A stretch of DNA of 64,000 nt from Squalus acanthias (taxonomy: Eukaryota): positions 30,878,001 through 30,942,000 of the forward strand of contig CM059432.1 in the NCBI GenBank assembly GCA_030390025.1, in the 5' to 3' direction. The notes under the pieces were generated by a model. The model did no database searches. It was not told the origin of the DNA and was given only the letters and a program-made list of their open reading frames with translations. The position numbers and the translations under genes were made by a program. The first letter of the stretch is position 1; each line of letters starts with the position of its first letter. Shown piece after piece: positions 3,111 to 40,386 of this stretch.

Positions 3111-3670
3111 ACATAAGAACATAAGAAATAGGAGCAGGAGTAGGCCATTTGGCCTCTCGAGCCTGCTCCGCCATTCAATAAGATCATGGCTGATCATCAA
3201 CCTCAACTCCACTTTCCTGCATTATCTCCATATCCCTTGATTCCCTTAACATCCAAAAATCTATCAGTCTCTGTCTTGAATATACTCAACAACTGAGCCT
3301 CCACAGCCCTCTGGGGTAGAGAATTCCAAAGATTCACAACCCTTTGAGTGAAGAAATTTCTCGTCATCTCAGTCCTGAATGGCCAACCCCTTATTCTGAG
3401 ACCGTGAGCCCTGGTTCTAGACTCCGCAGCCAAGGGAAACATCCTCCCTGCATCTACCCTGTCAAGTTCTGTAAGAATTTTGTATGTTTCAATGAGATCA
3501 CCTCTCATTCTTCTAAACTCTAGAGAATATGTGCCCAGTCTACTCAATCTCTCCTTACAGGACAATCCCCCCATCCCAGGAATCAGTCTGGTGAACCTTC
3601 GTTGCACTCCCTCTATGGCAAGTATATCCTTCCTTAGGTAAGGAGACCACAACTGTACACAATACTCCAA
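3111..3670 (-). mobile_element. CR1 LINE #1, 3' piece (end of ORF2 plus tail)
   Basis: LEYCVQLWSPYLRKD...NFFTQRVVNLWNSLP in ORF 3203..3724; ACATAAGA tandem tail at 3111; ends abruptly at the A1 TIR. Confidence 0.95.
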
Positions 3671-4028
3671 GGGGTAGAAATTAGGTCGCGCCCCATTTGA
3701 AGCGCAAATATCGTCCGGACGCAAATATTAGCGCCTGGCGCTAATTATCGGCACTGACAGGAAACTTCACTTTTACCGCCCCGGGAGGTGAGTGGAGCGC
3801 TAAAGTAGGCGCTGCACACCTCGCTTAAGGCGCAAAGGCCAAGGAGTGAGGCGCTAACTCAGCGCACGAGCGCAGCGCAGCTGCTGCCAGTTAGCGAGGG
3901 AACACAGACACAATGGCGCCAGACACTTCTTAAAGCGGGGGGGGGCCACTTGCTCCCCAGCCACACCCTGCTCATTGCAGCCTTGAATCTCAGCCTGGAG
4001 AGACCTGTAATCCATTTTGCTGCCAAGC

Positions 4029-5906
4029 ATGGAGAGGGTGAGAGAACGCGCTCATCGCTTCACCGAGCGGGCCTTGGATGCTCTGGTTGACGCAGTGGAG
4101 CGCAGACGATGCATGCTGTTCCCGGAGAGTGGCAGGAGGCCTTTGCCACGCGAGTTCAGAAGAGTGTGGAGGGAGGTGGCTCAGAGCGTCTCCTCCAGGA
4201 GCATGGTGCCCAGGACCCAAGTTCAATGCCGCAAAAAGTTCAACGACCTCACTCGGGTCGTCAGGGTGAGTGGCTTTTTCTCAATACCTCTCCATCCCTC
4301 CATCTCAACCTCACTCTATGGCCAGATGGTCTTAAAACCCCAATGCACAACACTCATCCAACACCTATGGCCCTTTCATCAAACACACACACACATTCCA
4401 CACTTTGCATACAGTAAGGGCTATTCACCTATGGGAGGCACATCAGGCAAGACCATGGCTGCATACAGTAAGGGCTATTCACCTATGGGAGGCACATCAG
4501 GCAAGACCATGGCTGCATACAGTAAGGGCTATTCACCTATGGGAGGCACATCAGGCAAGACCATGGCTGTATATTTACTCAGATGCTGTCCTTTTTCTTG
4601 CAGGCTAAGCTGGCTCATAATCGGAGACAGCAGCAACGGACGGGTGGAGGGCGGCTTCAGCTGCAACCCCTCAGCGATCTGGAGGAGCGCGTCCACAGGA
4701 TTGTGGCAAGCCGGGTGATCGGTCCCGTCGCCACTGGAGACGCCGACCCCGTTGTGGACAGCAATGGTAAGGTCATCACCTTTTTGTCCTCTGTCCTTCC
4801 ACTTGTCCCTCACAATACCAGCCTTTGACACTTTCAATCCAACTTGCTAACTCGCTGCACTTATTCCTCCCTTACTGCCACCCTGTCCTCACGCTAAAGC
4901 CACTCTTGTACCTCCCTGCTTTCAGATGGTGATTCACCAGCTGAGGAGACGGGCCCTGAAGCTGCCACTGGGAGTGATGCTGCAGCTGAGGAGGAAGAGG
5001 AAGCCGGAGCATCAGTGCCACCCTCTCCCGAGGAAGCCCATGCCCACACTGGGAACACGCCTTCCCCGGAGGGGAGCAGGGGGGAAGGGGCTGATGATGG
5101 TGAAGCTCCAGGACCCAGCGGGCTGCAGCAACGCCATGGGGGGGGGTAGGGAAGAACAGGGGCCTTCTCCCCAGAGGGAGAGTATGCCAGACACTCCTAC
5201 TGCAATGGACGCAGAGGAGGAGCGGCTGATTGCAGAAATGAACACCCAGGCGGTGGGCATGCACACTGAGCTCATGGGTGCAGTGGGAAGGGTGCCCGAT
5301 TGCATTGAGTCACTGGCAAGGAGTGTGGAGCACTTCGCTGTAGCACAGGCGGATGCCACACTAACGCTTAGTGCTGCAATTCAGTCAATGGCTGCCGTGA
5401 TCCCACCTCTGACTGCTCTCATACAGACTCAGATGGAGGCCACGCGAGCACAGACTGCTGCCAACCTCGATGGTTCGTGCACATGTCCCCGGGGCTGTCA
5501 CCGCGCCGCAGCAGGCCAGCAATCTGTTCTCCGGCAAATTGCTCCGGATGCTGAAGTGCTGCCCCGTGGGAGTGCCAGTGTGTCGGGCGAGCAGGGAGTT
5601 GCTGGCCTCTCTCACGATGACAGCATTCCTGCTGCCAACACTGTCACTTCTCCACTGCACTCGCCACCGCCTGTAGGACAGACTGCTGCCGCCCATGCAG
5701 AGTTGGTGCAGTCTGCAGCCGGGCCCTCCAGGCCCAGAAGTGGTCGAGGCCGTCCTTCAGGGGCATCTGCAGTGTCAGGGTCTGACGAGCAGCAGCCTTC
5801 CACCAGCCTTGCTGCAGCCACTGAGGTCCCATTACGGAGGAGCAGTAGGGTTAGAAGGGGGGAAGTGCGCAAGGGAAGGAGATCACCCTCGAAGGGCAAA
5901 AAGTAG
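4029..5906 (+). pseudogene. Harbinger Myb/SANT-like DNA-binding gene, 3 exons (4029-4265, 4604-4766, 4926-5906), with an apparent +1 frameshift in a G run near 5140
   Basis: MERVRERAHRFTERALDALV..VWREVA..QCRKKFNDL..AKLAHNRRQQQRTGGG. GT-AG sites conserved in A2 and B. CAT+G9+TAG gives a stop here, whereas A2 has G8 and stays in frame; could be a homopolymer error. Confidence 0.85.
4406..4567 (+). repeat. 54-bp minisatellite x3 in intron 1 of the Myb-like gene
   Basis: TGCATACAGTAAGGGCTATTCACCTATGGGAGGCACATCAGGCAAGACCATGGC x3; also x3 in A2 (16059-16220) and two diverged units in B (~9401-9510). Confidence 0.95.
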
Positions 5907-6200
5907 GAGGTGTGCCAAAATGCTGGTCATTTTTTTATTAAAGGCCGAGGTTCATGGTCCAACTTTTGTTTAGTGTTTTGGACATTATCTCCAGGTTGTG
6001 AGAACCAGTTATGTTATTGACTGTTTTTTTGTGTTTATTTCTATGAGTTTGTCATGAGGAATTGACACACACAGAGTTTGTAAAATAAATAAGTTTCTGT
6101 ATTCAAAATATACATGGCTGGTGGTTGGAATTATTGGTGCCTTGGCCGGCTTAGGGGTTGCGTGCTGGGTTGATTAGTGTTTGTAGCAATGGCAGGGGCC

Positions 6201-7361
6201 CTAGAAGCGGCTTGCTATTAGTCGTTGACGGACGGCCCTTGCAGTTTGACCATTGTGGGCCGCCCTCCTGCCTTGGTGCTGCTGATGATCATCGTCCTCG
6301 TCCTGTTCCTCCTCTTCCTCCTCCTCCTCTGGTGGTGCTACAAGGCCTGGTGGCATTGGCTGGGTCCTGAGGATTGCCATGTTGTGCAACATGCAGCACA
6401 CGACTACGAAGTTCGAAACTTGCTCAGGCGAGTACTGCAGGGCTCCTCCGGAATGGTCCAGACAGCGGAACCGTTGTTTCAGCATGCCGATTGTGCGCTC
6501 AATAATGTTCCTGGTTGCTTGATGGCTTTCATTGTACCGCAGCTCAGCAGGGGTGTTTGGCGTACGGAGCGGTGTCATCAGCCAGGTGCTCAATGCGTAC
6601 CCCTTGTCCCCCAGAAGCCAACCAACTGGCTGATGCGGTGCCTCGAAAACTTCTGCCACAGTAGTCTGGCGCAGGATGAAAGCATCGTGGCAGCTGCCCG
6701 GATAGTGGGCATTGACAGCGAGTATCACCTGTCTGTGGTCACAGACCAACTGCACATTCAAGGAATGGAACCCCTTTCTGTTCCTGAATTCCTCTGCATT
6801 CTCTCGCGGAGCACGCAAAGCCACATGCGTGCAGTCAATGGCGCCCTGCACCATGGGGAAGCCCGCTACCCTCGCAAAGCCCAGAGCACGGTCACGCTGC
6901 TTGTCTGGGGTCATAGGGAAAGAGATGAAGTCTCGTCTCCTTCTGAAGAGGGCATTGGTGACCTGCCGGATGCAGCGATGCACCGCAAACTGGGAGATAT
7001 TGGCGAGGTCCCCAACAGCAGCTTGGAATGAGCCAGTGGCGTAGAAGTTCAAAGCCACTGTGACCTTCACTGCCACCGACAGAGACGTCCTGGACCTCAG
7101 CTGAGGCTGCAGATCTGGCTGCAGCAGGTGGCAGAGCTCAGTAACCACCTCCTTGCTGAATCGCAGTCTTCGCAAACACAGCTCCTCGGACATATGGATG
7201 TAGGAGAGCTGTTCACGATATACCCTGGGAGGGTAAGCTCTCCTGTACATGCGCCTGATGGCCCTCCTCCGTCTGGCCATCATTGCCACTCTCTGTCTGC
7301 GTCTCAGTATCCTCCGATTCAGCTGGAGCAGGACGACGCCCCCAATCATTGCAGCCCCCAT
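6201..7361 (-). CDS. PIF/Harbinger DDE transposase (HARBI1-like), 386 aa, intronless
   Basis: Uninterrupted ORF with GAIDCTH, RKGFHSLNVQLVCD, PGSCHDAFIL, LLGDKGY, RNIIERTIG-LKQRFRCL, CCMLHN motifs and an acidic tail. Confidence 0.97.
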   Translation of the reverse strand: MGAAMIGGVVLLQLNRRILRRRQRVAMMARRRRAIRRMYRRAYPPRVYREQLSYIHMSEELCLRRLRFSKEVVTELCHLLQPDLQPQLRSRTSLSVAVKVTVALNFYATGSFQAAVGDLANISQFAVHRCIRQVTNALFRRRRDFISFPMTPDKQRDRALGFARVAGFPMVQGAIDCTHVALRAPRENAEEFRNRKGFHSLNVQLVCDHRQVILAVNAHYPGSCHDAFILRQTTVAEVFEAPHQPVGWLLGDKGYALSTWLMTPLRTPNTPAELRYNESHQATRNIIERTIGMLKQRFRCLDHSGGALQYSPEQVSNFVVVCCMLHNMAILRTQPMPPGLVAPPEEEEEEEEQDEDDDHQQHQGRRAAHNGQTARAVRQRLIASRF

Positions 7362-7873
7362 ATTCTCTTTGCCAGAAAAGTAATGAGGTACAGCAACTAA
7401 AGTAGCAACAAAGTTAGGATGAACTAGGCAAAACTACCTCACAAAGCGTTGAGTCAATGTAGAAGTCTCTCTCTCTCTCTCTCCGAATCTCTCTCTCTCT
7501 CTCAGAACGAGTGGTGCATAAATGTCGACCACAGAAAAAGACAGGAAGAGGCCCCCTTTAAATAGCGCCCCCCCCAGCCCCACACCGATTGATAACGTTC
7601 CAGTCTTCCGGTCGTTGGAAGCGCCAGGCGGTAAGGCAGGGGGCGCCACTCAATTTCCGCTCCGGGGCGCCCCAAGGGCGTTGCACCATGGAATGACGTC
7701 ACAATCTGCGCGCGCAGGTGGTCGCAGCGGTAAGTTTTAGCGCCGCCGCACAATCTCAAGTTAAGTTCTCGAGCGGCGCAAACAGCGCTGCGCCCGGGCG
7801 TTAGCGGCTTAACGCCCCATTAGCGCCCTCTTAAGGCGCTAACGGGAGGCGCAACCAAGTGAATTTTTACCCC

Positions 7874-8661
7874 TAAATATTTAAGGATATTTGACTTTTA
7901 GAAGAGACAGCCAGAATGGGAAAGGAGGAGGGGTAGCCCTGATAATAAAGGAGGGAATAAAGACAGTAGAAAGAAAAGATCTTGGCTCGGAAAAACAAAA
8001 TGTAGAATCAGTTTGGGTGGAGCTAAGAAACAACAAGGGGCAGAAAACACTAGTGGGAGTAATCTATAGGCCCCTTAACAGTGGTTGTAGTGTCGGGCAG
8101 AGTATAAATCAGGAAATTAGAGATGCATGTAACAAGGGTAATACAGTAATCATGTGGGGACTTTAGCTTTCATATAGACTGGGCAAACCAAATTTGCAGA
8201 AATAGTGCAGCAGAAGAGTTCATGGAATGCATTCAAGATAGTTTTCTAAATCAGTATGTCAAGGGACCTAAGAGGGAATTGGTTATTTTAGATCTAGTAC
8301 TGTGCAATGAGACAGGGTTAATTAATAACCTTGTAGTAAAGGAGCCTCTGGGGAGCAGTGATCATAATATGATAGAATATTATGTTGAGTTTGAGAGTGA
8401 TTTAGTTAAGTCTGAAACTAGGGTCCTAAACCTGAACAAAACAAATTACGTAGGTATGAGAGACAAGTTGGCTAAGGTGGGTTTGGAAACTAGATTAAAA
8501 GATATGACAGTAGAAAAGCAATGCCAAACATTTAAAGAAATAATTCATAATTCGCAACAAATATACATTCCCTTAAGGAATAAAAACACCACGGGAAAAA
8601 TGGTCCAACCATGGCTAACAAGAGAAATTAAAGATAGTATTAGATTAAAGGAAGAGGCTCA
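7874..8661 (+). mobile_element. CR1 LINE #1, middle piece 1 (endonuclease region), inverted relative to the outer pieces
   Basis: GYLTFRRDSQNGKGGGVALIIK, VGVIYRP, ILDLVL, LGSSDHNMI. Confidence 0.93.
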
Positions 8662-9022
8662 GGAGGAGAAATTCGGTATTGTCCCGTTTGGGGTGCAATT
8701 ATCGGCTGGGCGCAAAGTTTAGCGCCTGGCGCTAATTATCGCCTCTGACTGCAAACTTGGCCTCTATCACCCCTGGAGGTGATTTGAGCGCTAACTCGGG
8801 CGCTACACACCTGTCTTAAGGCGCTAACGCCAAGGCACAAGGCGCTACCTCACAGCGCTGGCGAAGCTCAGGTGATGTCAATTCGCTATGGAACACAGAC
8901 AGACTGGCGCCAGCCAGTTCTTAAAGGGGAGGGTCGATCTTGCTCTCCATCCACACCCTGCTCACTGCAGCCTTGAATCTCGGCCTGGACAGACCTGTAC
9001 ATCAATTCTGCTGGAACCAACA

Positions 9023-10855
9023 ATGGAGAGGCCCAGAGAAAGAGCTCAGCGCTTCAACGACCAGGCCTTGGTGGCTCTGGTTGGCACTGTGGAGCGGCGA
9101 AGGGCAGTACTCTACCCACAGAGTGGCAGGAGGCCATTGCCACGCAAATACAGAAGAGTCTGGAGGGTGGTGGCTCAGCACGACTCCTCCAGGAGCCTGG
9201 TACCCAGGACCCACACCCAATGTCGGAAGAAGTTCAATGACCTCAGTCGGGTGGTGAGGGTGAGTGGCTGCTTTTCAATACCTCTACATCCCTCCATCTC
9301 AACTTCACTCTGTGCCCAGAGGGTTTAAAAACTCCAAATGCCCAACACTCATCCAAGACCTATGGCAATCTCATAAAACACACTCGCGCATTCCACACCT
9401 TGCATACATTAAGGGCTATTCAACTATGGGAGGCACATCAGGCAAGCACATGGCTGCATACAATTAGGGCTATTCAACTATGGAAGGCACATCAGGCAAG
9501 CACATGGCTGCACATTCACTCAGACGCCATCCTTTTTTTGCAGGCCAAGCTGTCTCATAACAAGCGCCAGCAGCAACGCATGGGAGGAGGACCGGCTGAC
9601 CTACACACCCTCAGCGATTTGGAGGCGGCGTGCACAGGATCGTTGCCAGCCAGGTGATAGGTGCCGTGGCCGCTGGAGAGGTCGACCCCCTTGGGGACAG
9701 CAGTGGTATGTTCATCAGCTTTCTCTCCTCTCTCATTCCACTTGCCCCTCACAACACCAGCCTTTTACACTTTCAATCCAACTTACTAAATGTCTCCAGT
9801 CCTTCCTCCCTTACTGCCCCCCTGTCCTGACGCTAAAGCCACTCTTGTACCTCTCTGCTTTCAGATAGTGAACCACCAGCTGACGAGCCTGTCCCTCAAC
9901 TAACCAGTGGCAGTGACGCCCCAGGTGAGGAGGAGGAGGAAGAGGAAGCCGGAGCCTCACCGCCTGCGTCTCCCGAGGGAGCCCATGCCCACACTGGGAC
10001 CATGCCTTCCATGGAGGGGAGCGGGTGGAAGGGTCTGATGAGGATGAAGCTCCGGGACCCAGTGGGCTGCAGCAACGCCATGGGGGTAGGGAAGCTCGGG
10101 GGCCATCTCCCCGGAGGGAGAGTAGGCAAGCGAGTCCTGCTGCACTGGACGCAGAGGAGGAGTGCGTCATCGCGGAAATGAATAGCCAGGCCTTGAGCAT
10201 GCACACTGAGCTCATGGGTGCAATGGCAAGAGTGCCTGAAAGCATTGATGCACTGGCAAGGAGTGTGGAGCACTCTGCTGCAGCACAGGCTAATGCAACG
10301 CAACAGCTTAGTGCTGCAATTCAGTCACTGGCTGCTGCCTTCCAGTCTCAGACTGCTCTCATGCAGTCTCAGATTGATGTCAAGCAAGCACTGACTGCTG
10401 CCATCGTCGCTGGGTCGACCACATTGCCCCGGGGCTCTCACGGTGCTGCAGCAGGCCAGCAATCTGTGCTCGAGCAGATTGCTCCGGATGCTGAGGTACT
10501 GCCCTGTGGGAGTGCCAGTGTGTTGGTCGAGCAGGAAGCTGCTGTCCTCTCTCAGGATGACAGCATTCCAGCTCCCACCACTGGCACTTCCCCATTGCAC
10601 TTGCCACCGCCTGCAACACAGCCAGCCCAGACTGCTGTCGCCCATGCAGAGTTGGTGCAGTCTGCAGCCGGGGCCTCCAAGCCCAGAGCTGGTCGAGGGC
10701 GTCCTTCAAGGGTATCTGTAGTCTCTGCATCTGACATTCAGCAGCCTTCCACCAGCCTTGCTGCAGCCACTGGGGTCCCATTACGGAGGAGCAGTAAGGT
10801 GGGAAGGGGGGAACTGCACAGGGGATGGAGATCACCATCGAAGGGCAAACAGTAG
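9023..10855 (+). pseudogene. Myb/SANT-like gene of element B, 3 exons, frameshift in exon 2
   Basis: MERPRERAQRFNDQALVALV..QCRKKFNDL; donor after 9259, acceptor before 9544; 1-bp loss near 9628; ORF 10025..10855 matches exon 3 of A. Confidence 0.9.
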
Positions 10856-11152
10856 GAGGTCTAAATAAATGGTGGGAATGTTTGTAGTAAAGGTCGAGGT
10901 TCGTGTGATTACATTTGTTTACTGTTTTGTTGTTTATCTCCAGCTTGTGAGAACAAGTTCCGTTAATTCATGATTTATTGTGTTTGTTTCAATTTGTTTG
11001 TCCTGAATAAATGACACACACAGAGTTTGTTAAAGAAAAAAGTTGTATTCTAAATTTATATTTTTGGCCTTTGGAATCATTCCAGCTTTGGCCGGCAATA
11101 GCGGGTGCGGGTTGCTTTCCATGATGTTGTTCTCCATACCAGAAGCCATCTT

Positions 11153-12293
11153 ACATAAGAACATAAGAAATAGGAGCAGGAGTAGGCCATTCGGCCCTTC
11201 GAGCCTGCTCCGCCATTCAATGAGATCATGGCTGATCTTCTGCCTCAATTCCATTCACCGGCCCTATCGCCATATTCCTTGATGCCCTTACTAGTCAGAA
11301 ATCTATCGACTTCTGTTTTGAATATACCCAATGACTGAGCCTCCACAGCCCTCTGGGGTAGAGAATTCCAAAGATTCACCACCCTCTGTGTGAAGAAATT
11401 TCTTCTCATCTCAGTCCTGAATGGCCTACCCTTTATCCTGAGGCTGTGACCCCTGGTTCTAGACTCCCCAGCCAAGGGAAACATTCTCCCAGCATCCACC
11501 TTATCAAGCCCTGTAATAATTTTGTATGCTTCAATGAGATCCCCTCTCATTCTTCTGAATTCAAGAGAATACAGGCCTAGTTTACTCAATCTCTTCTTAT
11601 ATGACAGTCCCGCCATTCCAGGAATCAATCTCGTGAACCTTCATTGCACTCCCTCTATGGCAAGTATATCCTTCCTTAGGTAAGGAGACCAAAATTGTAC
11701 ACAGTACTCCAGGTGTAGTCTCACCAAGGCCCTATATAATTGGAGTAAGACTTCTTTACTCCTGTACTCAAATCCTCTTGTAATGAAGGCCAGCATACCA
11801 TTTGCCTTCCTAATGGCTTGCTGCACCTGCACATTCACTTTCAGTGACTCATGTACAAGAACACCCAGGTCTCTTTGAGCATCTGCATTCCCCAATCTTT
11901 CACCATTTAGGAAATACTCTGCCTTTCTGTTTTTTCTACCAACGTGGATAACTTCACATTTATCCACATTATATTCCATCTGCCATGTTCTCGCCCACTC
12001 ACTGAGCCTGTCGAGATCCCCTTGAAGCCTCTTCGCATCAGCTTCGCAACTGACACTTTTACAATCCTTTTTTATATTTTTCGCTAGATTGTGCTCATAT
12101 TCCATTTTCCTTTTCTTTATCAATTTCTTGGTCCTCCTTTGCTGCTTTCTAAAAAGATCCCAATCCTCAGGCTGACTGCTTTTTCTGGCAACTTTATAAG
12201 CTTCCTCCTTTGACTGAATACTAGCTTTAATTTCTTTTGTTAGACATGGTTGGATCACTTTTCCTTTTGGGTTTTTATGTCCTAGAGGAATAA
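11153..12293 (-). mobile_element. 5'-truncated, internally deleted CR1 inserted between the two genes of element B
   Basis: ACATAAGA tail at 11153; ORFs 11245..11628 and 11641..12258; KDCKS is fused to VSCEADAKRL at ~12053, so the RT core is missing. Confidence 0.92.
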
Positions 12294-12310
12294 ATGTTCT
12301 GAGTAGGGGC

Positions 12311-13466
12311 CTAGAAGTGGCTTGTTATCAGCCATTGACGGACGGCCCTTGCAGTGGCAACAATGTGCGCCTCCCTCCCACATTGGTGCTGCTGCTGATC
12401 ATCCTCCTCATCCTCCTCCTCCTCTTCCTCCTCCTCTTTCTCAGGTGGTGCACCAATCCCTGGTGGCATTGGCTGGGTCCTCAAGATTGCCAGGTTGTGA
12501 AGCATGCAGCACACAACTATGAAGAGGGAGACTCGCTCAGGCGAGTACTGCAGGGCTCCTCCTGAGTGGTCCAGAGAGCGGAACTGTTGCTTGAGCACGC
12601 CGATCGTCTGCTCAATGATGTTCCTGGTGGCGATATGGCTCTCATTATGCCGCAGCTCGGCAGGGGTGTTGGGGTTACGGAGGGTGTCATCAGCCAGGTG
12701 CAGAGACCCTTGTCCACGAGGAGCCATCCACTTGGAGCATGCGGTGCCTGGAAAAGGTCTGGCACACCAGTCTGGCGCAGGATGAAAGCATCGTGGCTGC
12801 TGCCAGGATAGCGGGCATTGACGGCGAGTATGAGCTGTCTGTGGTCACAGACCAACTGCACATTTAAGGAGTGGTAGCCCTTGCGGTTTCGGAATACCTC
12901 TGCATTTTCATGCGGTGCCCTCAATGCCACATGTGTTCAGTCAATGGCACCCTGCACCATAGGGAAGCCCGCTATCCTAGCAAAGCCACATGCGCGTTCA
13001 TGCTGTTTAGCCCGGGTCATGGGGAAAGAGATGTACTGGCGTCTCCTTTTATACGGGGCATTTGTCACCTCCCGGATACAACAATGGACAGCGAACTGGA
13101 AGATATTGGTGATCTCCCCAGTAGATGATTTAAAGGAGCCGCTGGCATAAAAATTCAGAGCCACTGTCACCTTCACTGCCACCGACAGAGACATCCTGGT
13201 CCTCAGTTGAGGCTGCAGATCTGGTTGCAGCAGGTGGCAGAGCTCAGTGTCCACCTCCTTGCTGAAGCGCAGCCTGCGCAAACACTGCTCCTCAGACAAA
13301 TGAATGTAGGAAAATTGCTCCCAGAATACCCTGGGAGAGTAAGGTCTCCTGTGCAGAGGCCTGTTCACCCTCCTCCCTCTGGCCATGTTTGCCACTCTCT
13401 CTCTGTGTCTCTGCTGCCTCCGATTCTGCAGGTACAGGACGACGCCCGAATCAGTGCAGCCCCCAT
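12311..13466 (-). pseudogene. Harbinger transposase of element B (stop and frameshifts)
   Basis: Split across ORFs 12937..13488, 12517..12930 and 12311..12727; stop directly after GAID. Confidence 0.93.
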
Positions 13467-13955
13467 AGTCTCTTCTAAATTGATGCAAGGAAGGTCAAAT
13501 CAAACTGAACATGCTAAGCGCTGCTCAGTACCCAAAGCTCCTTCACAAAGCGTTGAATCTCTCCAGAAGTCTCTCTCTCCCTCTCAGAATGCGTGGTGCA
13601 AAAATGTCGCCGACAAAAAAAGGCAGGAAGCGGCCGCCTTTAAATAATACTCCCCCAACCCCTTCCCGACTGCAAAACGCTCCCTTCTACCTGTCGTTGT
13701 TAGCGGCAGGCGGAAAGGCAGGGGGCACCACTCAATATCCGGTCCGGGGCACTACCGGGGTGTTGCACGCTCAACTGACATCACGATCTGCGGGTGCAGA
13801 AGATTGTGGCGGTAGTGTTTAGCGCCGCCGCAAAATGTCTGGTCAATTTCGCGAGCGGCGCAAACATCACCGAGCCCGGGAGCAAGTTGCTTTGCGCCCC
13901 ATTAGTGCCCTCTTAAGGCACTAACGGGAGGCGCTAATCAACCGAATGTTTCCCC

Positions 13956-15324
13956 TTATAATTTTGCCAAAAGAGTAGTAAACTTCAGGATTGGGAGGAT
14001 TTTAGAATTCAGCAAAGGAGGACCAAGAAATTGATAAAGAAAGGGAAAATAGAATATGAAAGTAAACTAGCGAGAGACATAAAAACAGACTGTAAAAGCT
14101 TATATTGGTATGTAAAATGGAAAAGATTAGCAAAAGTAAACATGGGTCCCTTACAGGCTGAGACAGGAGAAATTATAATGGGGAATAAGGAAATCGCAGA
14201 GAAATTAAATAAATACTTTGTGTCTGTCTTCACGGAAGAAGACACAAAAAACCTCCTGGAAATAGTGGAGAACCAAGGGTCTAGCGAGAATGAGGAACTG
14301 AAAGAATTAGTATTAGTAAAAAAAAGTACTGGAGAAATTAATGGGACTGAAAGCCAATAAATCCCCTGGCCCTGATGGGCTACATCCTAGGGTTATAAAA
14401 GAGGTGGCTATATAGATCGTGGAAGCATTGGTTATCATCTTCCAAAATTCCATAGAGTCTAGAACGGTTCCTGTGGAATGGAAGGCAGCAAATGTAACCC
14501 CACTATTTAAGAAAGGAGGGAGAGAGAAAACGGGGAACTACAGACCAGTTAGCCTGACATCAATAGTAGGGAAAATGCTAGAATCTATTATTAAGGATGT
14601 GATAACAGGGCACTTAGAAAATAATAATAGGATTGGGCAGAGTCAGCACGGATTTATGAAAGGGAAATCATGTTTGACGAATTTGTTAGAGTTTTTTGAG
14701 TTTGCAACTAGCAGAATAGATAAGGGGGAACCAGTGGATGTGGTGTATTTGGATTTTCAGAAGGCATTCGATAAGGTGCCACACAAGAGCTTATTGAACA
14801 AAATTAGAGCTCATGGGATTGGGGGTAATATACTAGCATGGATTGAGGATTGGTTAACGGACAGAAAACAGAGAGTAGGAATAAACGGGTCATATTCTGT
14901 TTGGCAGGCTGTAACGAGTGGAGTACCGCAAGGATCAGTGTTTGGGCATCAGCTATTCACAATCTATATCAATGATTTGGATGAGGGGACCAAATGTAAC
15001 ATATCCAAGTTTGCTGATGATACAAAGCTAGGTGGGAATGTAAGTTGTGAGGAGGATGCAAAGAGGCTTCAAGGGGATATAGACAGGCTAAGTGAGTGGT
15101 CAAGTACATGGCAAATGGAATATAATGTGGAGAAATGCGAAGTTATCCACTTTTGTAGGAAAAATAGTAAAGCAGAATATTTTTTAAATGGTGAGAGATT
15201 GGGAAATGTTGGTCTTCAGAGGAACCTGGGTGTCTTTGTACATGAATCACTGAAAGTTAACATGCAGGTACAGCAAGCAATTAGGAAAGCAAATGGCATG
15301 TTGGCCTTTATTACAAGAGTAAAG
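13956..15324 (+). mobile_element. CR1 LINE #1, middle piece 2 (reverse transcriptase)
   Basis: ORF 14419..15411 with NYRPVSLTS, QHGFMKGKSCLTNL, YLDFQKAFDKVPH, SGVPQGS, KFADDTK; stops at the A2 TIR. Confidence 0.96.
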
Positions 15325-15681
15325 GGGGTAGAAATTAGGTCGCGCCCCATTTGGGGCGCAAATATCGTCCGGACGCAAATATTAGCGCCTGGCGCTAATT
15401 ATCGGCACTGACAGGAAACTTCACTTTTACCGCCCCGGGAGGTGAGTGGAGCGCTAAAGTAGGCGCTGCACACCTCTTTTAAGGCGCAAAGGCCAAGGAG
15501 TGAGGCGCTAACTCAGCGCACGAGCGCAACGCAGCTGCTGCCAGTTAGCGAGGGAACACAGACACAATGGCGCCGGACACTTCTTAAAGCGGGGGGGGCC
15601 ACTTGCTCCCCAGCCACACCCTGCTCATTGCAGCCTTGAATCTCAGCCTGGAGAGACCTGTAATCCATTTTGCTGCCAAGC

Positions 15682-17558
15682 ATGGAGAGGGTGAGAGAAC
15701 GCGCTCATCGCTTCACCGAGCGGGCCTTGGATGCTCTGGTTGACGCAGTGGAGCGCAGACGATGCATGCTGTTCCCGGAGAGTGGCAGGAGGCCTTTGCC
15801 ACGCGAGTTCAGAAGAGTGTGGAGGGAGGTGGCTCAGAGCGTCTCCTCCAGGAGCATGGTGCCCAGGACCCATGTTCAATGCCGCAAAAAGTTCAACGAC
15901 CTCACTCGGGTCGTCAGGGTGAGTGGCTTTTTCTCAATACCTCTCCATCCCTCCATCTCAACCTCACTCTATGGCCAGAGGGTCTTAAAACCCCAATGCA
16001 CAACACTCATCCAACACCTATGGCACTTTCATCAAACACACACACACATTCCACACTTTGCATACAGTAAGGGCTATTCATCTATGGGAGGCACATCAGG
16101 CAAGACCATGGCTGCATACAGTAAGGGCTATTCACCTATGGGAGGCACATCAGGCAAGACCATGGCTGCATACAGTAAGGGCTATTCACCTATGGGAGGC
16201 ACATCAGGCAAGACCATGGCTGTATATTTACTCAGATGCTGTCCTTTTTCTTGCAGGCTAAGCTGGCTCATAATCGGAGACAGCAGCAATGGACGGGTGG
16301 AGGGCGGCTTCAGCTGCAACCCCTCAGCGATCTGGAGGAGCGCGTCCACAGGATTGTGGCAAGCCGGGTGATCGGTCCCGTCGCCACTGGAGACGCCGAC
16401 CCCGTTGTGGACAGCAATGGTAAGGTCATCACCTTTTTGTCCTCTGTCCTTCCACTTGTCCCTCACAATACCAGCCTTTGACACTTTCAATCCAACTTGC
16501 TAACTCGCTGCACTTATTCCTCCCTTACTGCCACCCTGTCCTCACGCTAAAGCCACTCTTGTACCTCCCTGCTTTCAGATGGTGATTCACCAGCTGAGGA
16601 GACGGGCCCTGAAGCTGCCACTGGGAGTGATGCTGCAGCTGAGGAGGAAGAGGAAGCCGGAGCATCAGTGCCACCCTCTCCCGAGGAAGCCCATGCCCAC
16701 ACTGGGAACACGCCTTCCCCGGAGGGGAGCAGGGGGGAAGGGGCTGATGATGGTGAAGCTCCAGGACCCAGCGGGCTGCAGCAACGCCATGGGGGGGGTA
16801 GGGAAGAACGGGGGCCTTCTCCCCAGAGGGAGAGTATGCCAGACACTCCTACTGCAATGGACGCAGAGGAGGAGCGGCTGATTGCAGAAATGAACACCCA
16901 GGCGGTGGGCATGCACACTGAGCTCATGGGTGCAGTGGGAAGGGTGCCCGATTGCATTGAGTCACTGGCAAGGAGTGTGGAGCACTTCGCTGTAGCACAG
17001 GCGGATGCCACACTAACGCTTAGTGCTGCAATTCAGTCAATGGCTGCCGTGATCCCACCTCTGACTGCTCTCATACAGACTCAGATGGAGGCCACGCGAG
17101 CACAGACTGCTGCCAACCTCGATGGTTCGTGCACATGTCCCCGGGGCTGTCACCGCGCCGCAGCAGGCCAGCAATCTGTTCTCCGGCAAATTGCTCCGGA
17201 TGCTGAAGTGCTGCCCCGTGGGAGTGCCAGTGTGTCGGGCGAGCAGGGAGTTGCTGGCCTCTCTCACGATGACAGCATTCCTGCTGCCAACACTGTCACT
17301 TCTCCACTGCACTCGCCACCGCCTGTAGGACAGACTGCTGCCGCCCATGCAGAGTTGGTGCAGTCTGCAGCCGGGCCCTCCAGGCCCAGAAGTGGTCGAG
17401 GCCGTCCTTCAGGGGCATCTGCAGTGTCAGGGTCTGACGAGCAGCAGCCTTCCACCAGCCTTGCTGCAGCCACTGAGGTCCCATTATGGAGGAGCAGTAG
17501 GGTTAGAAGGGGGGAAGTGCGCAAGGGAAGGAGATCACCCTCGAAGGGCAAAAAGTAG
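15682..17558 (+). CDS. Harbinger Myb/SANT-like DNA-binding protein, predicted 459 aa, exons 15682-15918, 16257-16419, 16579-17558
   Basis: 237+163+980 = 1380 nt open frame; donors GTGAGT and GTAAGG, acceptors TTGCAG and TTTCAG; N-terminal Myb/SANT-like domain, acidic linker, helical region, basic tail. Confidence 0.9.
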
Positions 17559-17852
17559 GAGGTGTGCCAAAATGCTGGTCATTTTTTTATTAAAGGCCGA
17601 GGTTCATGGTCCAACTTTTGTTTAGTGTTTTGGACATTATCTCCAGGTTGTGAGAACCAGTTATGTTATTGACTGTTTTTTTGTGTTTATTTCTATGAGT
17701 TTGTCATGAGGAATTGACACACACAGAGTTTGTAAAATAAATAAGTTTCTGTATTCAAAATATACATGGCTGGTGGTTGGAATTATTGGTGCCTTGGCCG
17801 GCTTAGGGGTTGCGTGCTGGTTTGATTAGTGTTTGTAGCAATGGCAGGGGCC

Positions 17853-19013
17853 CTAGAAGCGGCTTGCTATTAGTCGTTGACGGACGACCCTTGCAGTTTG
17901 ACCATTGTGGGCCGCCCTCCTGCCTTGGTGCTGCTGATGATCATCGTCCTCGTCCTGTTCCTCCTCTTCCTCCTCCTCCTCTGGTGGTGCTACAAGGCCT
18001 GGTGGCATTGGCTGGGTCCTGAGGATTGCCATGTTGTGCAACATGCAGCACACGACTACGAAGTTCGAAACTTGCTCAGGCGAGTACTGCAGGGCTCCTC
18101 CGGAATGGTCCAGACAGCGGAACCGTTGTTTCAGCACGCCGATTGTGCGCTCAATAATGTTCCTGGTTGCTTGATGGCTTTCATTGTACCGCAGCTCAGC
18201 AGGGGTGTTTGGCGTACGGAGCGGTGTCATCAGCCAGGTGCTCAATGCGTACCCCTTGTCCCCCAGAAGCCAACCAACTGGCTGATGCGGTGCCTCGAAA
18301 ACTTCTGCCACAGTAGTCTGGCGCAGGATGAAAGCATCGTGGCAGCTGCCCGGATAGTGGGCATTGACAGCGAGTATCACCTGTCTGTGGTCACAGACCA
18401 ACTGCACATTCAAGGAATGGAACCCCTTTCTGTTCCTGAATTCCTCTGCATTCTCTCGCGGAGCACGCAAAGCCACATGCGTGCAGTCAATGGCGCCCTG
18501 CACCATGGGGAAGCCCGCTACCCTCGCAAAGCCCAGAGCACGGTCACGCTGCTTGTCTGGGGTCATAGGGAAAGAGATGAAGTCTCGTCTCCTTCTGAAG
18601 AGGGCATTGGTGACCTGCCGGATGCAGCGATGCACCGCAAACTGGGAGATATTGGCGAGGTCCCCAACAGCAGCTTGGAATGAGCCAGTGGCGTAGAAGT
18701 TCAAAGCCACTGTGACCTTCACTGCCACCGACAGAGACGTCCTGGACCTCAGCTGAGGCTGCAGATCTGGCTGCAGCAGGTGGCAGAGCTCAGTGACCAC
18801 CTCCTTGCTGAATCGCAGCCTTCGCAAACACAGCTCCTCGGACATATGGATGTAGGAGAGCTGTTCACGATATACCCTGGGAGGGTAAGCTCTCCTGTAC
18901 ATGCGCCTGATGGCCCTCCTCCGTCTGGCCATCATTGCCACTCTCTGTCTGCGTCTCAGTATCCTCCGATTCAGCTGGAGCAGGACGACGCCCCCAATCA
19001 TTGCAGCCCCCAT
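17853..19013 (-). CDS. PIF/Harbinger DDE transposase, 386 aa
   Basis: Intact ORF with all catalytic motifs; differs from the A1 protein at two residues (M/V, A/V). Confidence 0.97.
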   Translation of the reverse strand: MGAAMIGGVVLLQLNRRILRRRQRVAMMARRRRAIRRMYRRAYPPRVYREQLSYIHMSEELCLRRLRFSKEVVTELCHLLQPDLQPQLRSRTSLSVAVKVTVALNFYATGSFQAAVGDLANISQFAVHRCIRQVTNALFRRRRDFISFPMTPDKQRDRALGFARVAGFPMVQGAIDCTHVALRAPRENAEEFRNRKGFHSLNVQLVCDHRQVILAVNAHYPGSCHDAFILRQTTVAEVFEAPHQPVGWLLGDKGYALSTWLMTPLRTPNTPAELRYNESHQATRNIIERTIGVLKQRFRCLDHSGGALQYSPEQVSNFVVVCCMLHNMAILRTQPMPPGLVAPPEEEEEEEEQDEDDDHQQHQGRRAAHNGQTARVVRQRLIASRF

Positions 19014-19523
19014 ATTCTCTTTGCCAGAAAAGTAATGAGGTACAGCAACTAAAGTAGCAACAAAGTTAGGATGAACTAGGCAAAACTACCTCACAAAGCG
19101 TTGAGTCAATGTAGAAGTCTCTCTCTCTCTCTCTCCGAATCTCTCTCTCTCTCAGAACGAGTGGTGCATAAATGTCGACCACAGAAAAAGACAGGAAGAG
19201 GCCCCCTTTAAATAGCGCCCCCCCCAGCCCCACACCGATTGATAACGTTCCAGTCTTCCGGTCGTTGGAAGCGCCAGGCGGTAAGGCAGGGGGCGCCACT
19301 CAATTTCCGCTCCGGGGCGCCCCAAGGGCGTTGCACCATGGAATGACGTCACAATCTGCGCGCGCAGGTGGTCGCAGCGGTAAGTTTTAGCGCCGCCGCA
19401 CAATCTCAAGTTAAGTTCTCGAGCGGCGCAAACAGCGCTGCGCCCGGGCGTTAGCGGCTTAACGCCCCATTAGCGCCCTCTTAAGGCGCTAACGGGAGGC
19501 GCAACCAAGTGAATTTTTACCCC

Positions 19524-19625
19524 TCAGTTCTTAACCTTGGTCACTCTGCAACCACATCTCTGCAATGGCTATTAAATCAAACCCATTTATTGCTATCTGC
19601 GCTATTAATTCATCTATTTTGTTTT
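19524..19625 (-). mobile_element. CR1 LINE #1, 5' piece (start of endonuclease)
   Basis: Reverse complement translates NKIDELIAQIAINGFDLIAIAEMWLQSDQG*EL and continues directly into 7874 (+). Confidence 0.88.
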
Positions 19626-19847
19626 CTTTCTCGTGTGGTTATTCAAGCATCAGGGTTCCACTTGATTAATCAGTATCTTCATTACATTGGCCCGATAGAA
19701 AATGTTAGCCCATCATGAAGACACTCCCAGCAATTACTGCCAGACTTCAGTGTCTGCAGCCAGAGATGTTCTCTGGCACTCTGCTGGTCTTACATTCCCA
19801 ATAATTTCAATACTTGAATATCCACCAAGCTAAGCAATCACTTTTAA

Positions 19848-20027
19848 AGGGTAGTTTTCCAACTTTCTCAACAGAGAACCTCGCCCGCTGAGACCGTGTG
19901 TCACTGGCTGCATGATTTTCCGACTATTAATTTAAATTGTGGGAAAATCATGCACAGCGTGCACCTGAAAGTGTGCTCTCAGTGGGTGAGGTTTCCCACC
20001 GATATTGCAAAGCCAGAAGATGACCCC
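19848..20027. mobile_element. Palindromic Harbinger-type MITE
   Basis: Ends GGGTAGTTTTC / GAAGATGACCCC; internal arms TGCATGATTTTCC / GGAAAATCATGCA; a related core fragment lies at ~2188-2232. Confidence 0.65.
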
Positions 20028-20145
20028 TTTACTGCATTCAATAGTATTGGTATTGGAGGTTTGCCAGGCAAAAAAAAAAGGGACACAGGAGCATTGATTG
20101 TTAGCAGGCCTAGTCTCTCCAAGTCAAACAGTTTACAAGCTTAGA

Positions 20146-20480
20146 TGGTGCAGTAGGTTAGCTCACTGCCCCTTTCACCTCAGTGTATTGGGGCTGAATC
20201 CAGCCCAGAATGAAGGGATGAATGCAAGGGTTTTACATGAAATGAGTTTGAGCAGCAATTAAAGCAAATTAGCTTTCGACATGAACTCACTAAACTGGCA
20301 TCAACTGGCTCAAAAGTGACACGTCATTTAGCAAGGTCATAAGGGTGGCTGGTGTATTTCGCAACAAATTGGCAATGGTACTACAGAGACAACTTCTTTG
20401 AAGTTGTGGTTAAGGCACATTTTTGGAATAGAGTAAAAAGAACTTTGATCTATAATTGTCTGCGCTATACCTTGACCAGT
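20146..20480 (+). mobile_element. LF-SINE-like tRNA-derived SINE, decayed
   Basis: Ordered motifs CCTTTCACCTC, GAATCCAGCCCAG, TGAAATGAGTT, AACTGGCA, GGTTAAGGCACATT, GCTATACCT match the LF-SINE consensus as recalled. Confidence 0.55.
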
Positions 20481-20919
20481 AATGTAGGAAACGAGAATCT
20501 GCTTAAACAGGCAGGTGAATGTAACAGAGTTAACAACTCATTCATTTCCACTCCCTCAGTACTGCACTGAAGTACCAGCCTAGATCATGTGCTCAAGTCC
20601 CTGGTGTGGGGCTTAAATCAATGATCTTTTTGACTCAGAGACAAGAGTGATCCCACTGTACCAAGCTGAGATCTTTGTCACTAATGGTGGAATTAAGGGA
20701 GGCGGGGAGATGTACAAAAGGACAGAGTTTGCAAACCAAACTGTGGAGGAGGCAGCAGACATAAATAGTGATACATTCCACTCGTTGAACTCCCATCCCA
20801 ATAAAGTGTTTTGCCTTTCATCACGTCTGCATACAGTTGTGATGGCCATGGTATAAAGGGGAGGGGGAGGGGGAGTAGAATTCATATCCTAGACACAGCG
20901 AAAAGGAGCACAACAAGGC

Positions 20920-21330
20920 TGACCCCAATATAAAAGAGATGAGTTATGAGGAATGATGTAATAACCTAGAGCTCTTTAGCCTCATAAAGAGATATCTCAA
21001 AGGGCACTTTATAGAGGTATATAAGCTACTTAATGGAATAGGGACAGTAAACTTGGATCAATGCTTTCAGATACACCACGGCAACAGGGCAAGAGGGATC
21101 AGGGTTATGAAAAACAAATTTAGGATAGAGATCAGGAAGTATTTCATTATATAGAGGGTCATCAATAGCCAGACTAGCTGCCAAGAAGTGTGGCTGAGGT
21201 CAGGCCACTGGACTATTTAAGAAATATCTGGAGCTGTAATGGGGAGCATATTGCACTGGTATACTGGAAAGATGAGATCAAATGGTCCAAAGGACCTTTG
21301 TCATCTGAACCAATCCTGTGATCTTGTGAA
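20920..21330 (+). mobile_element. Decayed CR1 3' end
   Basis: AGTTATGAGGAA..CTCTTTAGCCT..TTTATAGAGGTATATAAG..TATTTCATTATATAGAGGGTC, co-linear with other CR1 3' ends in the window. Confidence 0.65.
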
Positions 21331-33587: not shown

Positions 33588-36484
33588 CTCTACTGATAAA
33601 GCCCAGGATCCCGTAAGCTTTTTTAATCTCTATCTCAACCTGCCCTGCCACCTTCAACGATTTGTGCACATACAGCCCTCAGATCTCTCTGTTCATGCAC
33701 CCCCTTTAGAATTGTACCCTTTAGTTTATATTGCCTCTCCTCGTTCTTCCTACCAAAATGTATCACTTCGCACCTTTCTGCCTTAAATTTCATCTGCCAC
33801 GTGTCCGCCCATTCCACCAGCCTGTCTATGTCTTCTTGAAGTCTATCACTATCCTCCTCATTGTTCACTATACTTCCAAGTTTTCTGTCATCTGCAAATT
33901 TTGAAATTGTTCCCTGTACACCCAAGTCTAAGTCATTAATATATATATCAAGAAAAGCAGTGGTCCTAGTACTGACCCCTGGGAACTGTGTACCTTCCCC
34001 CAGTCCGAAAAATAACCGTTCATCACTACTCTCTCTTTCCTGTCATTTAGCCAATTTCGTATCCAGCTGCCACTCTCCCTTTTATTCCATGGGCTTCAAC
34101 TTTGCTGGCAAGCCTATTATGTGGCACTTTGTCGAACGCCTTTTGGAAGTCCACATACACCACGTCAACCGCATTGCTCGCATCAACCCTTTGTTACCTC
34201 ATCAAAAAACTCGATCAAGTTGATTAAACACGATTTGCCTTTAAAAAATCCGTGCAGGCTTTCCTTAATTGATCCACACTTGTCCAAATGATTGTTAATT
34301 TTGTCCCTGATTATTGTTTCTAAAAGCTTCCCCACTACCGAGGTTAAACTGACTGGCCTGTAGTTGCTAGGTTTATCTTTACACCGTTTCTTGAACAAGG
34401 GTGTAACATTTGCAATTCTCCAGTTCTCTGGCACCACCCCCGTTTCTAAGGAGGATTGGAAAATTATGGCCCGTACCTCTGCGATTTCTTCCTTCACTTC
34501 CCTTAGCATCCAAGGATGCATCCCATCTGGAACTGGTGACATATCTACTTTAAATATAGCCAACCTTTCTAGTACCTCCTCTTTATCAATTTTTATCCCA
34601 TCCAGTATCTCCTCTACCTCTCCTTCACTATGTCTATGGCAGCATCTTCTTCCTTACAGATGCAAAGTACTCATTTAGCACCTCAGCCATACCCTCTTCC
34701 TCCATGCATAGGTCTCCTTTCTGATCCCTAATCAGCCCCACCCCTCCTCTTACTACCGTTTACTATTTATATGACTTTTGGATTCCCTCTTATGTTATCT
34801 GCCATTCTATTCTCATACTCTCTCTTTGCCCCTCTTATTTCCTTTTTCACTTCCCCTCTGAACTTTCTATATTCAGCCTGGTTCTCACTTGTATTCTCAA
34901 CCTGATATTTGTCACACGCCCCCTTTGTCTGCTTCATCTTACTCTCTATCTCTTCCGTCATCCAGGGAGCTCTGACTTTAGTTGCCCTACCTTTCCCACT
35001 CGTGGGAATGTACCTTGACTGTACCTGAATCATCTCCTTTTTAAAGGCAGCCCATTGTTCGATTACAGTTTTGCCTGCCAATCTTTGATTTCAATTTACC
35101 TGGGCCAGATCGTTCTCAACCCACTGAAATTGGCCTTCCTCCAATTAAGTATTTTACTCTAGATTGCTCCCTGTCCTTTTCCATAGCTAATCTAAACCGT
35201 ACGATACTATGATCACTGTTCCCTAAATGTTCCGCTACTGACACTTGCTCCACTTGATCCACCTCATTCTCCAGAACCAGATCCAGCAATGCCTCCTTCC
35301 TCATTGGGCCGGAAACGTACTGATCAAGAAAGTTCTCCTGAACACACTTCAGAAATTCTTCACCCTCTCTGCCCTTTACACTATTACAATCCCAATCTAT
35401 ATTAGGATAGTTGAAGTCCCCCATTATCACTACTCTACAGTTCTTGCAATTTCCCCCCAAATTTGCTCCTCTATATCCTTCCCATTAGTTGGTGGCCTAT
35501 AGAATACACCTAGTAGTGTAATGGCACCTCTATTGTTTCTTAATTCTAAATTAATAGATTCGGTCCTTGACCCCTCCAGGATATCCTCTCTCTCCGCACT
35601 GCAATATTCTCCTTCATCAAAACTGCCACCCCACCTCCTTTCTTTCCTTCCCTATCTTTCCTGAACACTTATATCCAGGAATATTTAGTACCCAATCTTG
35701 CCCTTTTTTGAGCCACGTCTCCGTTATAGCCACATCATATTTCCATGTGGCTATTTGCGCCTGCAGCCCACCAACCTTATTTACTCTGCTTCGTGCGTTT
35801 ACACACATGCACTGTAAACCTATCTTAGACCTTTTTTTATTCTCTCTTAGTCTGACCCCACCTAATACCATGCTATTTCTTACTCTAGTGCTATCTGTCT
35901 CTCCCAATCCTTTGTGCACCTTGTGTCTCCTTTCTAATGCTACATTCTGGTGCCCATCCCCCTGCCAAATTAGTTTAAACCCTCCCCAACAGCACGAGCA
36001 AACCCCCCCCCCTCACCACGATGACATTGGTCCCAGCTATGTTGAGGTGCAACCCGTCCGGCCTGTACGGACTTGGGTCTGACTGTACTCCCCAGAAGAA
36101 CCATCGCCCTCACCAGTATTCAGTACTGAATACTGGTTAGAGAGTGAGATGCACTCAGGGGACTCCTGCACTACCTGCCTGGTCCTCCTTGTCTGTCTGA
36201 CGGTCACCCATTCCCTCTCTGCCTGCACACTCTTATGCTGCGGGGTGACCACCTCCAGAAACGTGCTATCCACATAGCTCAGAGCCTCATAGATGCACCA
36301 CAGTGACGCCAGCTGCTGCTCAAGCTCCGAAAACATTTGGTCCTTTGAGCCTGCTCCGCCATTCAATAAGATCATGGCTGATCTTCTACCTCAACTCCAC
36401 TTTCCTGCACTATCCCCATATCCCTTGATTCCCTTAATATCCAAAAATCTATCGATCTCTGTCTTGAATATACTCAACGACTGA

Positions 36485-37226
36485 GGGCTGGATTTTGAAT
36501 GACCCATGGAGTCGGGTTTGGAGGCGTGTGGGGGGTTAAATTTGCGGGGTCGGGGGCCCCGACCCCTTCCCGACTCCATCCCGCCTCCACGCAATTTTGA
36601 CAAAATCAGTTGCGGGGTTTCCGACTCCGTCCCGCCTCCAAAAGGCGGGAGAGGCCATTAAAGCCCTTAACAAGCTTTAAATTGGCTCTGTAATGCAATT
36701 TTGAAATGTTTTAGCTAGTTTAACCCTTTTCTGACGTGAAGCACACCTGGTGTGAAACACTCCAGTGAAACCTGGCGGGAGCACAAGTGGATAGCTGACT
36801 ATCGGCTGCAAGTCCACTATTACAACAGAGATGTGATGAAGGTAGTAGTGTGAAAGTCGCGTCTGATGCTGCTGCATTGAATGTGTTCAGAGACTGCATG
36901 GCATTTGGTGTGAGAGGACTCTCTCTCTCTCTCTCTCTCCCTCCCTCTCTCTCTCTCTCTCTCTCTCTGTCCTCCCCCCACATCTTGCATCGAGGTCCAC
37001 TCACATCAAAGGCAAGCCTCAGTCTAGACAGTCAGCAATGATGACATCATCAGAGGCGACTTTCAGACTGAAACCACTAATTGGTTCATGGGTTCCCACA
37101 TGCTAGAACTCAATTGCCCAATTAAGTGAAAATTGCATCATTCATCCACATTAATCTGGAGTCGGGGGGGCAACACGAAATGCGGATGACACGACCCCAA
37201 CCCGACCCCAAGACAAAATCCAGCCC
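36485..37226. mobile_element. Harbinger MITE (GGGCTGGATTTT ends)
   Basis: TIR GGGCTGGATTTTG / CAAAATCCAGCCC; exact TGA duplication; right part similar to 46365-46561 of element D. Confidence 0.93.
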
Positions 37227-37391
37227 TGAGTCTCCACAGCCCTCTGGGGTAGAGAATTCCAAAGATTCACCACCCTCTGAGTGAATAAATTTCTCTTCAT
37301 TTCAGTCTTAAATGGCTGACCCCTTATTCTGAGACTGTGACCCCTGGTTCCAGACTCCCCAGCCAGGGGACACATCCTCCCTGCATCTACC

Positions 37392-39255: not shown

Positions 39256-40386
39256 ATGTCAAGCCCTGTAAGAATTCTGTATGTTTCAATGAGATCACCT
39301 CTCATTCTTCTAAACTCTAGAGAATATAGGCCTAGTCTACTCAATCTCTCCACATAGGACAATTCCCCCCATCCCAGGAATCAGTCTGTTGAACCTTTGT
39401 TGTAATCCCTCTATGGCAAGTATATCCTTCCTTAGGAGACCAAAACTGTGTACTATACTCCCAGGTGTGGTCTCACCAGGACCCTATATAATTGCAGGAA
39501 GACGTCTTTACTCTTAGACTCAAATCCTGTCTATATCCCCTTGAAGCCTCCTTGCATCATCCTCACAACTTACATTCCCACCCAGCTTTCTATCATCAAC
39601 AAACTTGGATATATTACATTTGGTCCTCTCATCCAAAATCATTGATGTAGATTGTGAATAGCTGAGGTCCAAGCACTGATCCTTGCGGTACTCCACTAGT
39701 TACAGCCTGCCAACCCGAAAATGACCCGTTTAATCCTACTCTCTGTTTTCTGTCCGTTAGTCAATCCTCGATCCATGCTAGTATATTACCCCCAGTCCCA
39801 TGAGACCTAATTTTGTTTAATAACCTCTTGTGTGGCACCTTATCGAATGCCTTCTGAAAATCCAAATACACCACATCCACTGGTTCCCCTTTTTCTATTC
39901 TGCTAGTTACAACCTCAAAAAACTCTAACAGATTTGTCAAACACGAAATCCGTGTTGACTCTGCCCAATAATATAATTATTTTCTAAGTGCCCTGTTACA
40001 TTATCCTTAATAATAGATTCTAGCATTTTCCCTACTACTGATGTCAGGCTAACTGGTCTGTAGTTCTCCGCTTTCTCTCTGCCTCCTTTCTTAAATAGTG
40101 AGGTTACATTTGCTACCTTCCAATCCGCGGGAACCGTTCTAGAATTAATGGAATTTTGGAAGGTGATAACCAATGCATCCACTATCTCTTTTGCCACCTC
40201 TTTCAAAACCCTAGAATGTAGACCATCAAGTCTAAGGGATTTATTAGCTTTCAGTCCCATTAATTTCTCCAGTACTATTTTTTTACTAATAATAATTTCT
40301 TTCAGTTCCTCATTCTCGCTAGGCCTTTGGTTTTCCACTATTTCCAGGAAGTTTTTTGCGTCTTCTTCCATGAAGACAGACACAAA

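Follow-up and report, generated by a model that had tools for sequence, protein, structure and literature searches.

Inversion of a CR1 segment between directly repeated Harbinger transposons in Squalus acanthias, probably by pairing of two right ends

Introduction

How can the middle of a retrotransposon be turned round between two DNA transposons that themselves lie in the same orientation? The question is raised by a window of 64,000 nt from Squalus acanthias (assembly GCA_030390025.1, CM059432.1, positions 30,878,001-30,942,000, forward strand; all coordinates below are those of the window), in which a CR1 long interspersed nuclear element (LINE) is divided by two Harbinger copies, denoted A1 and A2. 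Inversions caused by transposons are usually spotted by inverted copies flanking the segment, or by one left and one right end on a new target, and this locus fits neither description. The analysis presented here suggests that two Harbinger copies, lying tail to tail, probably used their two right ends as one pair and so inverted the CR1 segment.

Architecture of the split CR1

The CR1 begins in the window with a 3′ piece on the minus strand (3111-3670), comprising the end of the reverse transcriptase frame and the tail. It is followed by A1 (3671-7873, plus strand), by the inverted middle of the CR1 on the plus strand (7874-15324; 7,451 bp including nested elements, from the endonuclease to the reverse transcriptase), by A2 (15325-19523, plus strand) and by a 5′ piece of about 100 bp on the minus strand (19524-19625), which holds the start of the endonuclease region. 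A1 and the 3′ piece were recognized by self-comparison; the outer CR1 pieces were also placed by CR1 alignment, by divergence and by tiling on a related locus, L190.

The joints were checked by alignment to close CR1 copies (n = 19 per site). The two right ends lie on the halves of one original site: the reverse complement of the sequence from 19524 abuts the sequence from 7874 with an overlap of 3 bp. The first copy of this duplication, common to both right ends, is TAA (7874-7876, plus strand), and the second reads TCA at 19524-19526 (plus strand), which is TGA on the CR1 strand, one change from TAA. The family triplet at this site is TAA, and TGA is therefore the altered copy. At the left ends, A1 adjoins the triplet CAA that closes the 3′ piece (3668-3670; CAG in the family), and A2 adjoins a half-site ending in AAG (15315-15324, plus strand). 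Positions 3670 and 15324 are exactly 41 bp apart on the CR1, and the intervening DNA is absent. One break thus carries the two left ends and the other break the two right ends, as the preliminary description had claimed; the splitting of a single CR1, the shared right-end site with its TAA/TGA overlap and a left-end gap of about 41 bp were likewise part of that description and are borne out by the alignments. A private 16-bp deletion is found 5 bp before the left end of A2, between 15319 and 15320, where it lies between two AAGAG repeats; none of the 19 close copies carries it.

At L190 all four pieces are collinear within a single CR1, with no overlap beyond the triplet (L233-L238 served as additional BLAST targets in the collinearity comparison, and L232 was checked for family ends and has none). 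The four pieces differ by 3.3-5.4% from the majority of one CR1 subfamily, compared with 9.7% for the unrelated CR1 at 11153 and 3.6% for the CR1 at 39526. These values support one subfamily for all pieces, without proving one copy; it is the exact tiling that argues for a single-copy origin. It had been proposed that an origin of the pieces in different subfamilies, or a failure to abut, would count against the rearrangement, and neither was observed. As judged from these comparisons, the rearrangement at 3111-19625 is genuine and clean.

The flanking Harbinger elements

A1 and A2 are direct repeats of about 4.2 kb that are 99.5% identical, with 18 substitutions between them (self-comparison of the window). 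Their ends are intact (GGGG...CCCC), with short terminal inverted repeats. A domain search on A2 matched its transposase frame (17853-19085, minus strand, 410 aa stop to stop) to DDE_Tnp_4 (E 2.5e-39) and Plant_tran, and the second gene, the first exon of which lies at 15682-15918 on the plus strand, carries a Myb/SANT domain (Myb_DNA-bind_5, E 1.3e-09). The corresponding transposase frame of A1 (6201-7433, minus strand, 410 aa stop to stop) is open as well. A perfect 3-bp target duplication surrounds 23 of 29 other full-length copies. By these sequence features, namely the DDE_Tnp_4 transposase, the Myb/SANT gene, the short terminal inverted repeats and the 3-bp duplication, A1 and A2 are PIF/Harbinger elements.

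The family, denoted A, is large and young; the 3.7-Gb genome contains 8,649 exact matches to its left end and 2,971 to its right end. Among 31 copies compared, A1 and A2 are nearest or joint-nearest relatives and share one change that is missing from the other 29, a kinship that weakly fits a local hop. The left and right ends agree in 10 of their first 11 bases, and short GC-rich motifs are common to both. The first intron of the Myb gene contains three tandem 54-bp units (A1, 4406-4573; A2, 16059-16226), of which the older element B, described below, has two. In three full-length copies elsewhere (L008, L018 and L020) the triplets are fully or largely mismatched; in L018 the right flank is a mirror of the left, and a 7-bp repeat occurs in the flanks of L008. 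These may be scars of aborted excision.

Recurrent insertion sites

The positions of the left ends of A1 and A2 are denoted site a and site b, respectively, and the shared right-end TAA site d|e. A genome-wide pattern search for Harbinger-type ends within 100 bp of a CR1 anchor gave 202 matches, of which 100 were listed; the pattern also picks up sister subfamilies. Among the 100 matches listed, 62 lie at site b (1 bp tolerance), 11 at site a, exactly 44 bp on from site b, and 12 at a third site. Young family-A ends are present at both a and b. In a strict test the far flanks were normal at 54 of 62 b loci and at 10 of 13 a loci (the 11 together with two that have upstream deletions), and a and b are therefore true insertion sites. 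The d|e site accounts for 4 of 7 matches, including the window's own. In a target profile derived from 46 independent sites, b ranks 2nd and a 28th among 1841 CR1 positions, while the score of d|e is comparable to that of the 5th. That all three sites (a, b and d|e) are targeted repeatedly by Harbingers in this CR1 family is newly described here. An internally deleted form of the Harbinger family, 893 bp in length, is very common and occurs at the same hot spots.

A comparable preference has been described for Harbinger3_DR, for which PMC3016246, in the portion available, cites a palindromic target of about 15 bp around the 3-bp duplication. Palindromic target selection of that kind explains the hot spots; the triplet of the Squalus family differs in being looser, mostly N-A/T-N.

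The triplets of hot-spot copies match in 53 of 64 cases and differ by one base in 8, and a one-base mismatch is seen in 2 of 29 ordinary full-length copies. The TAA/TGA mismatch is thus an ordinary one, and it was discarded as a discriminator between routes. Since each of the four joints lies on a recurrent target site with a proper triplet, all four look like strand-transfer joints. The alternative that the A2-left joint is a repair product was dropped, in view of the share of the listed matches taken by site b.

The repair alternative was considered in a fuller form. Here two ordinary copies would have inserted in direct orientation, one at a and one at the TAA site; after cuts at the right and left ends that face inwards, the host would have repaired the damage by re-joining the intervening segment backwards, with 44 bp trimmed from one of its ends. 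It relies on a normal left/right pair, and the private 16-bp microhomology deletion beside A2 resembles a repair scar. Cuts by the rice element mPing have been proposed to leave 3-nt overhangs, mismatched ones being repaired less precisely (PMC4561436, in the excerpt available). However, trimming would have had to end exactly on the most strongly preferred insertion site of the region, a result that a random process would seldom give, and at least four events were still required when repair joints were allowed in the enumeration described below. This origin is considered very improbable.

Even less probable is an origin by coincidence or recombination, in which pieces of different CR1 copies were joined through the A repeats or inverted copies recombined. 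The hot-spot sites and the abundance of the CR1 subfamily do raise the odds of matching breakpoints by chance, and the neighbouring CR1 at 39526 departs from the subfamily majority by about as much as the pieces themselves do. On the other hand, Harbingers seldom occupy the TAA site (that anchor gave 4 matches in the whole genome), yet both of its halves are present here, and the four pieces line up as a tiling of one intact copy. Inverted copies that recombine with each other remain inverted, and A1 and A2 are direct repeats; with recombination allowed, the enumeration gave no route of fewer than four events.

Routes to the present arrangement

Possible routes from an intact CR1 were enumerated; the permitted events were insertions, excisions, recombination, and reactions of two ends located on the same chromatid or on two. 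When same-end pairing was allowed, three events led to the arrangement, and every such route passed through a tail-to-tail pair occupying a and b. Four events were needed when only left/right pairing was permitted, and the number stayed at four when fresh-joint targets, triplet-adjacent targets or swapped re-joining were added (four rule sets).

In the three-event route, one copy would first insert at site a or site b. The other site, 44 bp away, would then receive a second copy in reverse orientation, probably derived from the first by a local hop, so that the right ends would face each other across 47 bp (the 41 bp and two triplets). Finally, transposase would cut both right ends, with loss of the spacer. 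Each end would be joined to a different strand of the TAA site, which lies 7.45 kb past the left end of the second copy, and this copy would be turned round together with the middle of the CR1. In a sister-chromatid variant the right ends would come from two chromatids and no 47-bp loop would be needed; traced by hand, it gives the same product.

Precursors of this kind are plausible in general. Twenty-five right-right (tail-to-tail) pairs were found within 120 bp, together with 20 left-left (head-to-head) pairs within 150 bp and 57 direct pairs within 120 bp. The close pairs lie mostly at neighbouring hot spots, and the orientation counts give no sign of depletion. Locus L212, for instance, is a full-length tail-to-tail pair with 99.3% identity and an 11-bp spacer. 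The tail-to-tail pair about 41 bp apart that was proposed earlier has counterparts elsewhere in the genome, although an exact pattern search found none at sites a and b themselves.

Some of the close pairs are of interest for other reasons. In five close inverted pairs (L217, L218, L199, L207 and L211) the spacer of 3-11 bp reads in reverse complement with respect to the outer flanks, a pattern that either recombination between the arms or an ambiguous assembly would produce; L217 (about 4898-4910) is a full-length head-to-head pair with arms 99.7% identical. A tail-to-tail pair at L071 (621-2525), in which the outer flanks and spacer halves are reverse complements, is a fold-back inverted duplication. 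Two direct copies 8.2 kb apart (L084, 316-370, and L085, 251-305) have an identical left flank of 55 bp that is foreign at the first locus, and the right end of the second copy is on a different target; this is possibly another two-end rearrangement.

The principal alternative uses ordinary left/right pairs alone with one extra step, as in the alternative transposition of Ac/Ds. Direct copies at a and the TAA site could, for example, undergo a reversed-ends insertion into b, after which a sister-chromatid event would delete the 44-bp remnant; if the direct copies lay at a and b, a reversed-ends inversion to the TAA site could be followed by re-insertion of A2 in place the other way round; or two sister-chromatid events could both have used the TAA site. 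Each such route employs reactions reported for Ac/Ds (PMC3239180, PMC3470690, as far as the available sections go), linked ends of mPing take part in deletions in rice (PMC7584900, in the part accessible), and close direct pairs are as common as inverted ones by the counts above. Against this, each route requires an additional event that ends on one exact triplet. None of the 62 b-site loci showed the comparable loss of the 44 bp that separate b from a. An in-place flip might be marked by two triplets that are reverse complements of each other, and such a pair was found once among 29 full-length copies and never among 64 hot-spot copies; no changed or hybrid target half-site is present at the junctions of the window. 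From these rates (0/62 and 1/93) we estimate that the four-event routes jointly carry a penalty of a few per cent. The left/right routes are thus regarded as possible but rather unlikely. It is this penalty that favours the right-right route, and the preference holds unless right-right pairing occurs at less than a few per cent of the normal rate.

Several observations weigh against right-right pairing. Left/right routes reach the identical product in four events, and the enumeration itself is a toy model, limited to three inserted elements and weighting every event equally. A 47-bp spacer would make a short loop, the left and right ends clearly differ beyond the terminal bases, and the private deletion beside A2 is not explained by the route. 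A1 is closer to A2 than to the unlinked copy L002 by one change only, and A2 ties. At least 25 tail-to-tail pairs persist unrearranged, which indicates that the reaction is not efficient. An exact pattern search for a CR1 with both a and b occupied gave no match, and a search for short elements with two right ends (gap up to 500 bp) gave none either.

Nor was a second product found. Inspection by eye of the 28-bp flanks of 20 of the 25 tail-to-tail and 19 of the 20 head-to-head pairs revealed none that appeared to have moved by means of same-type ends, and none of ten direct pairs (from the first listed matches, on one contig) had the flank pattern of the window. No further rearranged pair was seen within about 10 kb on each side of five copies with mismatched triplets, or among partners within about 6 kb of 78 hot-spot loci, eight of which were ambiguous or had other deletions or insertions. 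The scan for pairs with left-left and right-right flank pairing that had been suggested earlier thus gave no second case in the pairs examined, and the reading describes a single event at a single assembled locus.

The joints are known from the assembly alone. When the read contigs of four runs were compared with 7874-21000, more than 80,000 short contigs per run stacked on the repeats, and locus-specific ones started only at 19596. Nine read runs matched the right flank: five, from two samples, contained 0.92-0.94 of its words, while the other four, with 0.24-0.25, carry no weight as evidence. An assembly error at the 4.2-kb repeat would be favoured by the thousands of near-identical family copies. 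A mis-join through the repeat, however, should be able to swap the pairing of left and right flanks but not to put two left ends on one break and two right ends on the other, and the alternative flank pairing would leave the CR1 middle as a circle. The position of all four joints on true target sites, with proper triplets, also argues against mis-assembly, which we think has only a slight chance of being the explanation.

Overall, the Tn10-type same-end reading put forward in the preliminary description is upheld in its geometry, its target sites and its shortest route (three events compared with four). It is weakened by the existence of four-event left/right routes to the identical product, by the failure to find the precursor at a and b, and by the failure to find a second product among the pairs examined.

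Comparison with known systems

In the inside-end deletion-inversion of Tn10, as outlined in the portion of PMC2723962 available, the central DNA is deleted, the adjacent segment and one element are inverted, the elements end as direct repeats around the inverted segment, and two facing ends join one target. At the present locus both facing ends are found on one duplicated target (TAA/TGA, one mismatch), and the outer ends keep their insertion flanks, both on recurrent targets, with the 41 bp between them lost. The product thus appears to match that reaction point for point, to the extent that the source describes it. The differences are that the Squalus case involves a eukaryotic two-protein Harbinger and a chance pair at neighbouring hot spots rather than a fixed composite, that a 47-bp spacer takes the place of a gene-bearing centre, and that it is read from one locus, not observed as a reaction.

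Alternative transposition of Ac/Ds (reversed-ends, sister-chromatid and single-chromatid) is similar in that ends of two linked elements cooperate, giving inversions, deletions, loss of the in-between segment and duplication at a new target. The cases described in the accessible sections of PMC3239180 and PMC3470690 pair a 5′ with a 3′ end, which in a single step gives the new target one end of each type; the duplicated site in Squalus bears two right ends.

Rice mPing belongs to the same superfamily, and tightly linked copies from a burst lie at the breakpoints of deletions and of a 120-kb inversion (PMC7584900, PMC5724284, in the passages available). Template switching is the explanation offered for that inversion, which is bordered on either side by two elements, and the part of PMC5724284 seen describes no same-end target duplication. 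No report of a same-end inversion by a Harbinger was found in the open-access literature, as judged from listings and the beginnings of abstracts, in agreement with the earlier remark that the reaction is not known for vertebrate Harbingers.

Other features of the window

An older Harbinger, B, is nested in the inverted CR1 middle (8662-13955, plus strand; triplets TCA/TTA). It is about 79% identical to A and is interrupted by CR1 pieces at about 11137-12305. At about 14220 the host CR1 is without some 870 bp that are present in the close copies L052, L060 and L190. The same loss is common to the CR1 copies L053, L058, L061 and L065, indicating that an internally deleted CR1 variant has spread. 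Several insertions also interrupt the 3′ end of another CR1 elsewhere in the window (36334-39468 and 39526-41449), and a CR1 piece of the opposite strand directly adjoins it.

Implications

The locus raises the wider possibility, which we put forward tentatively and at present consider doubtful, that the transposase of this vertebrate Harbinger pairs any two ends, including two right ends, and that the thousands of copies in neighbouring hot spots may act as Tn10-like composites that invert chromosome segments. If same-end pairing does occur, eukaryotic Harbingers can make rearrangements of the Tn10 type, which would escape any search that looks for inverted repeats at the flanks, and tools built on Harbingers could be used to rearrange the DNA between closely spaced inserts.

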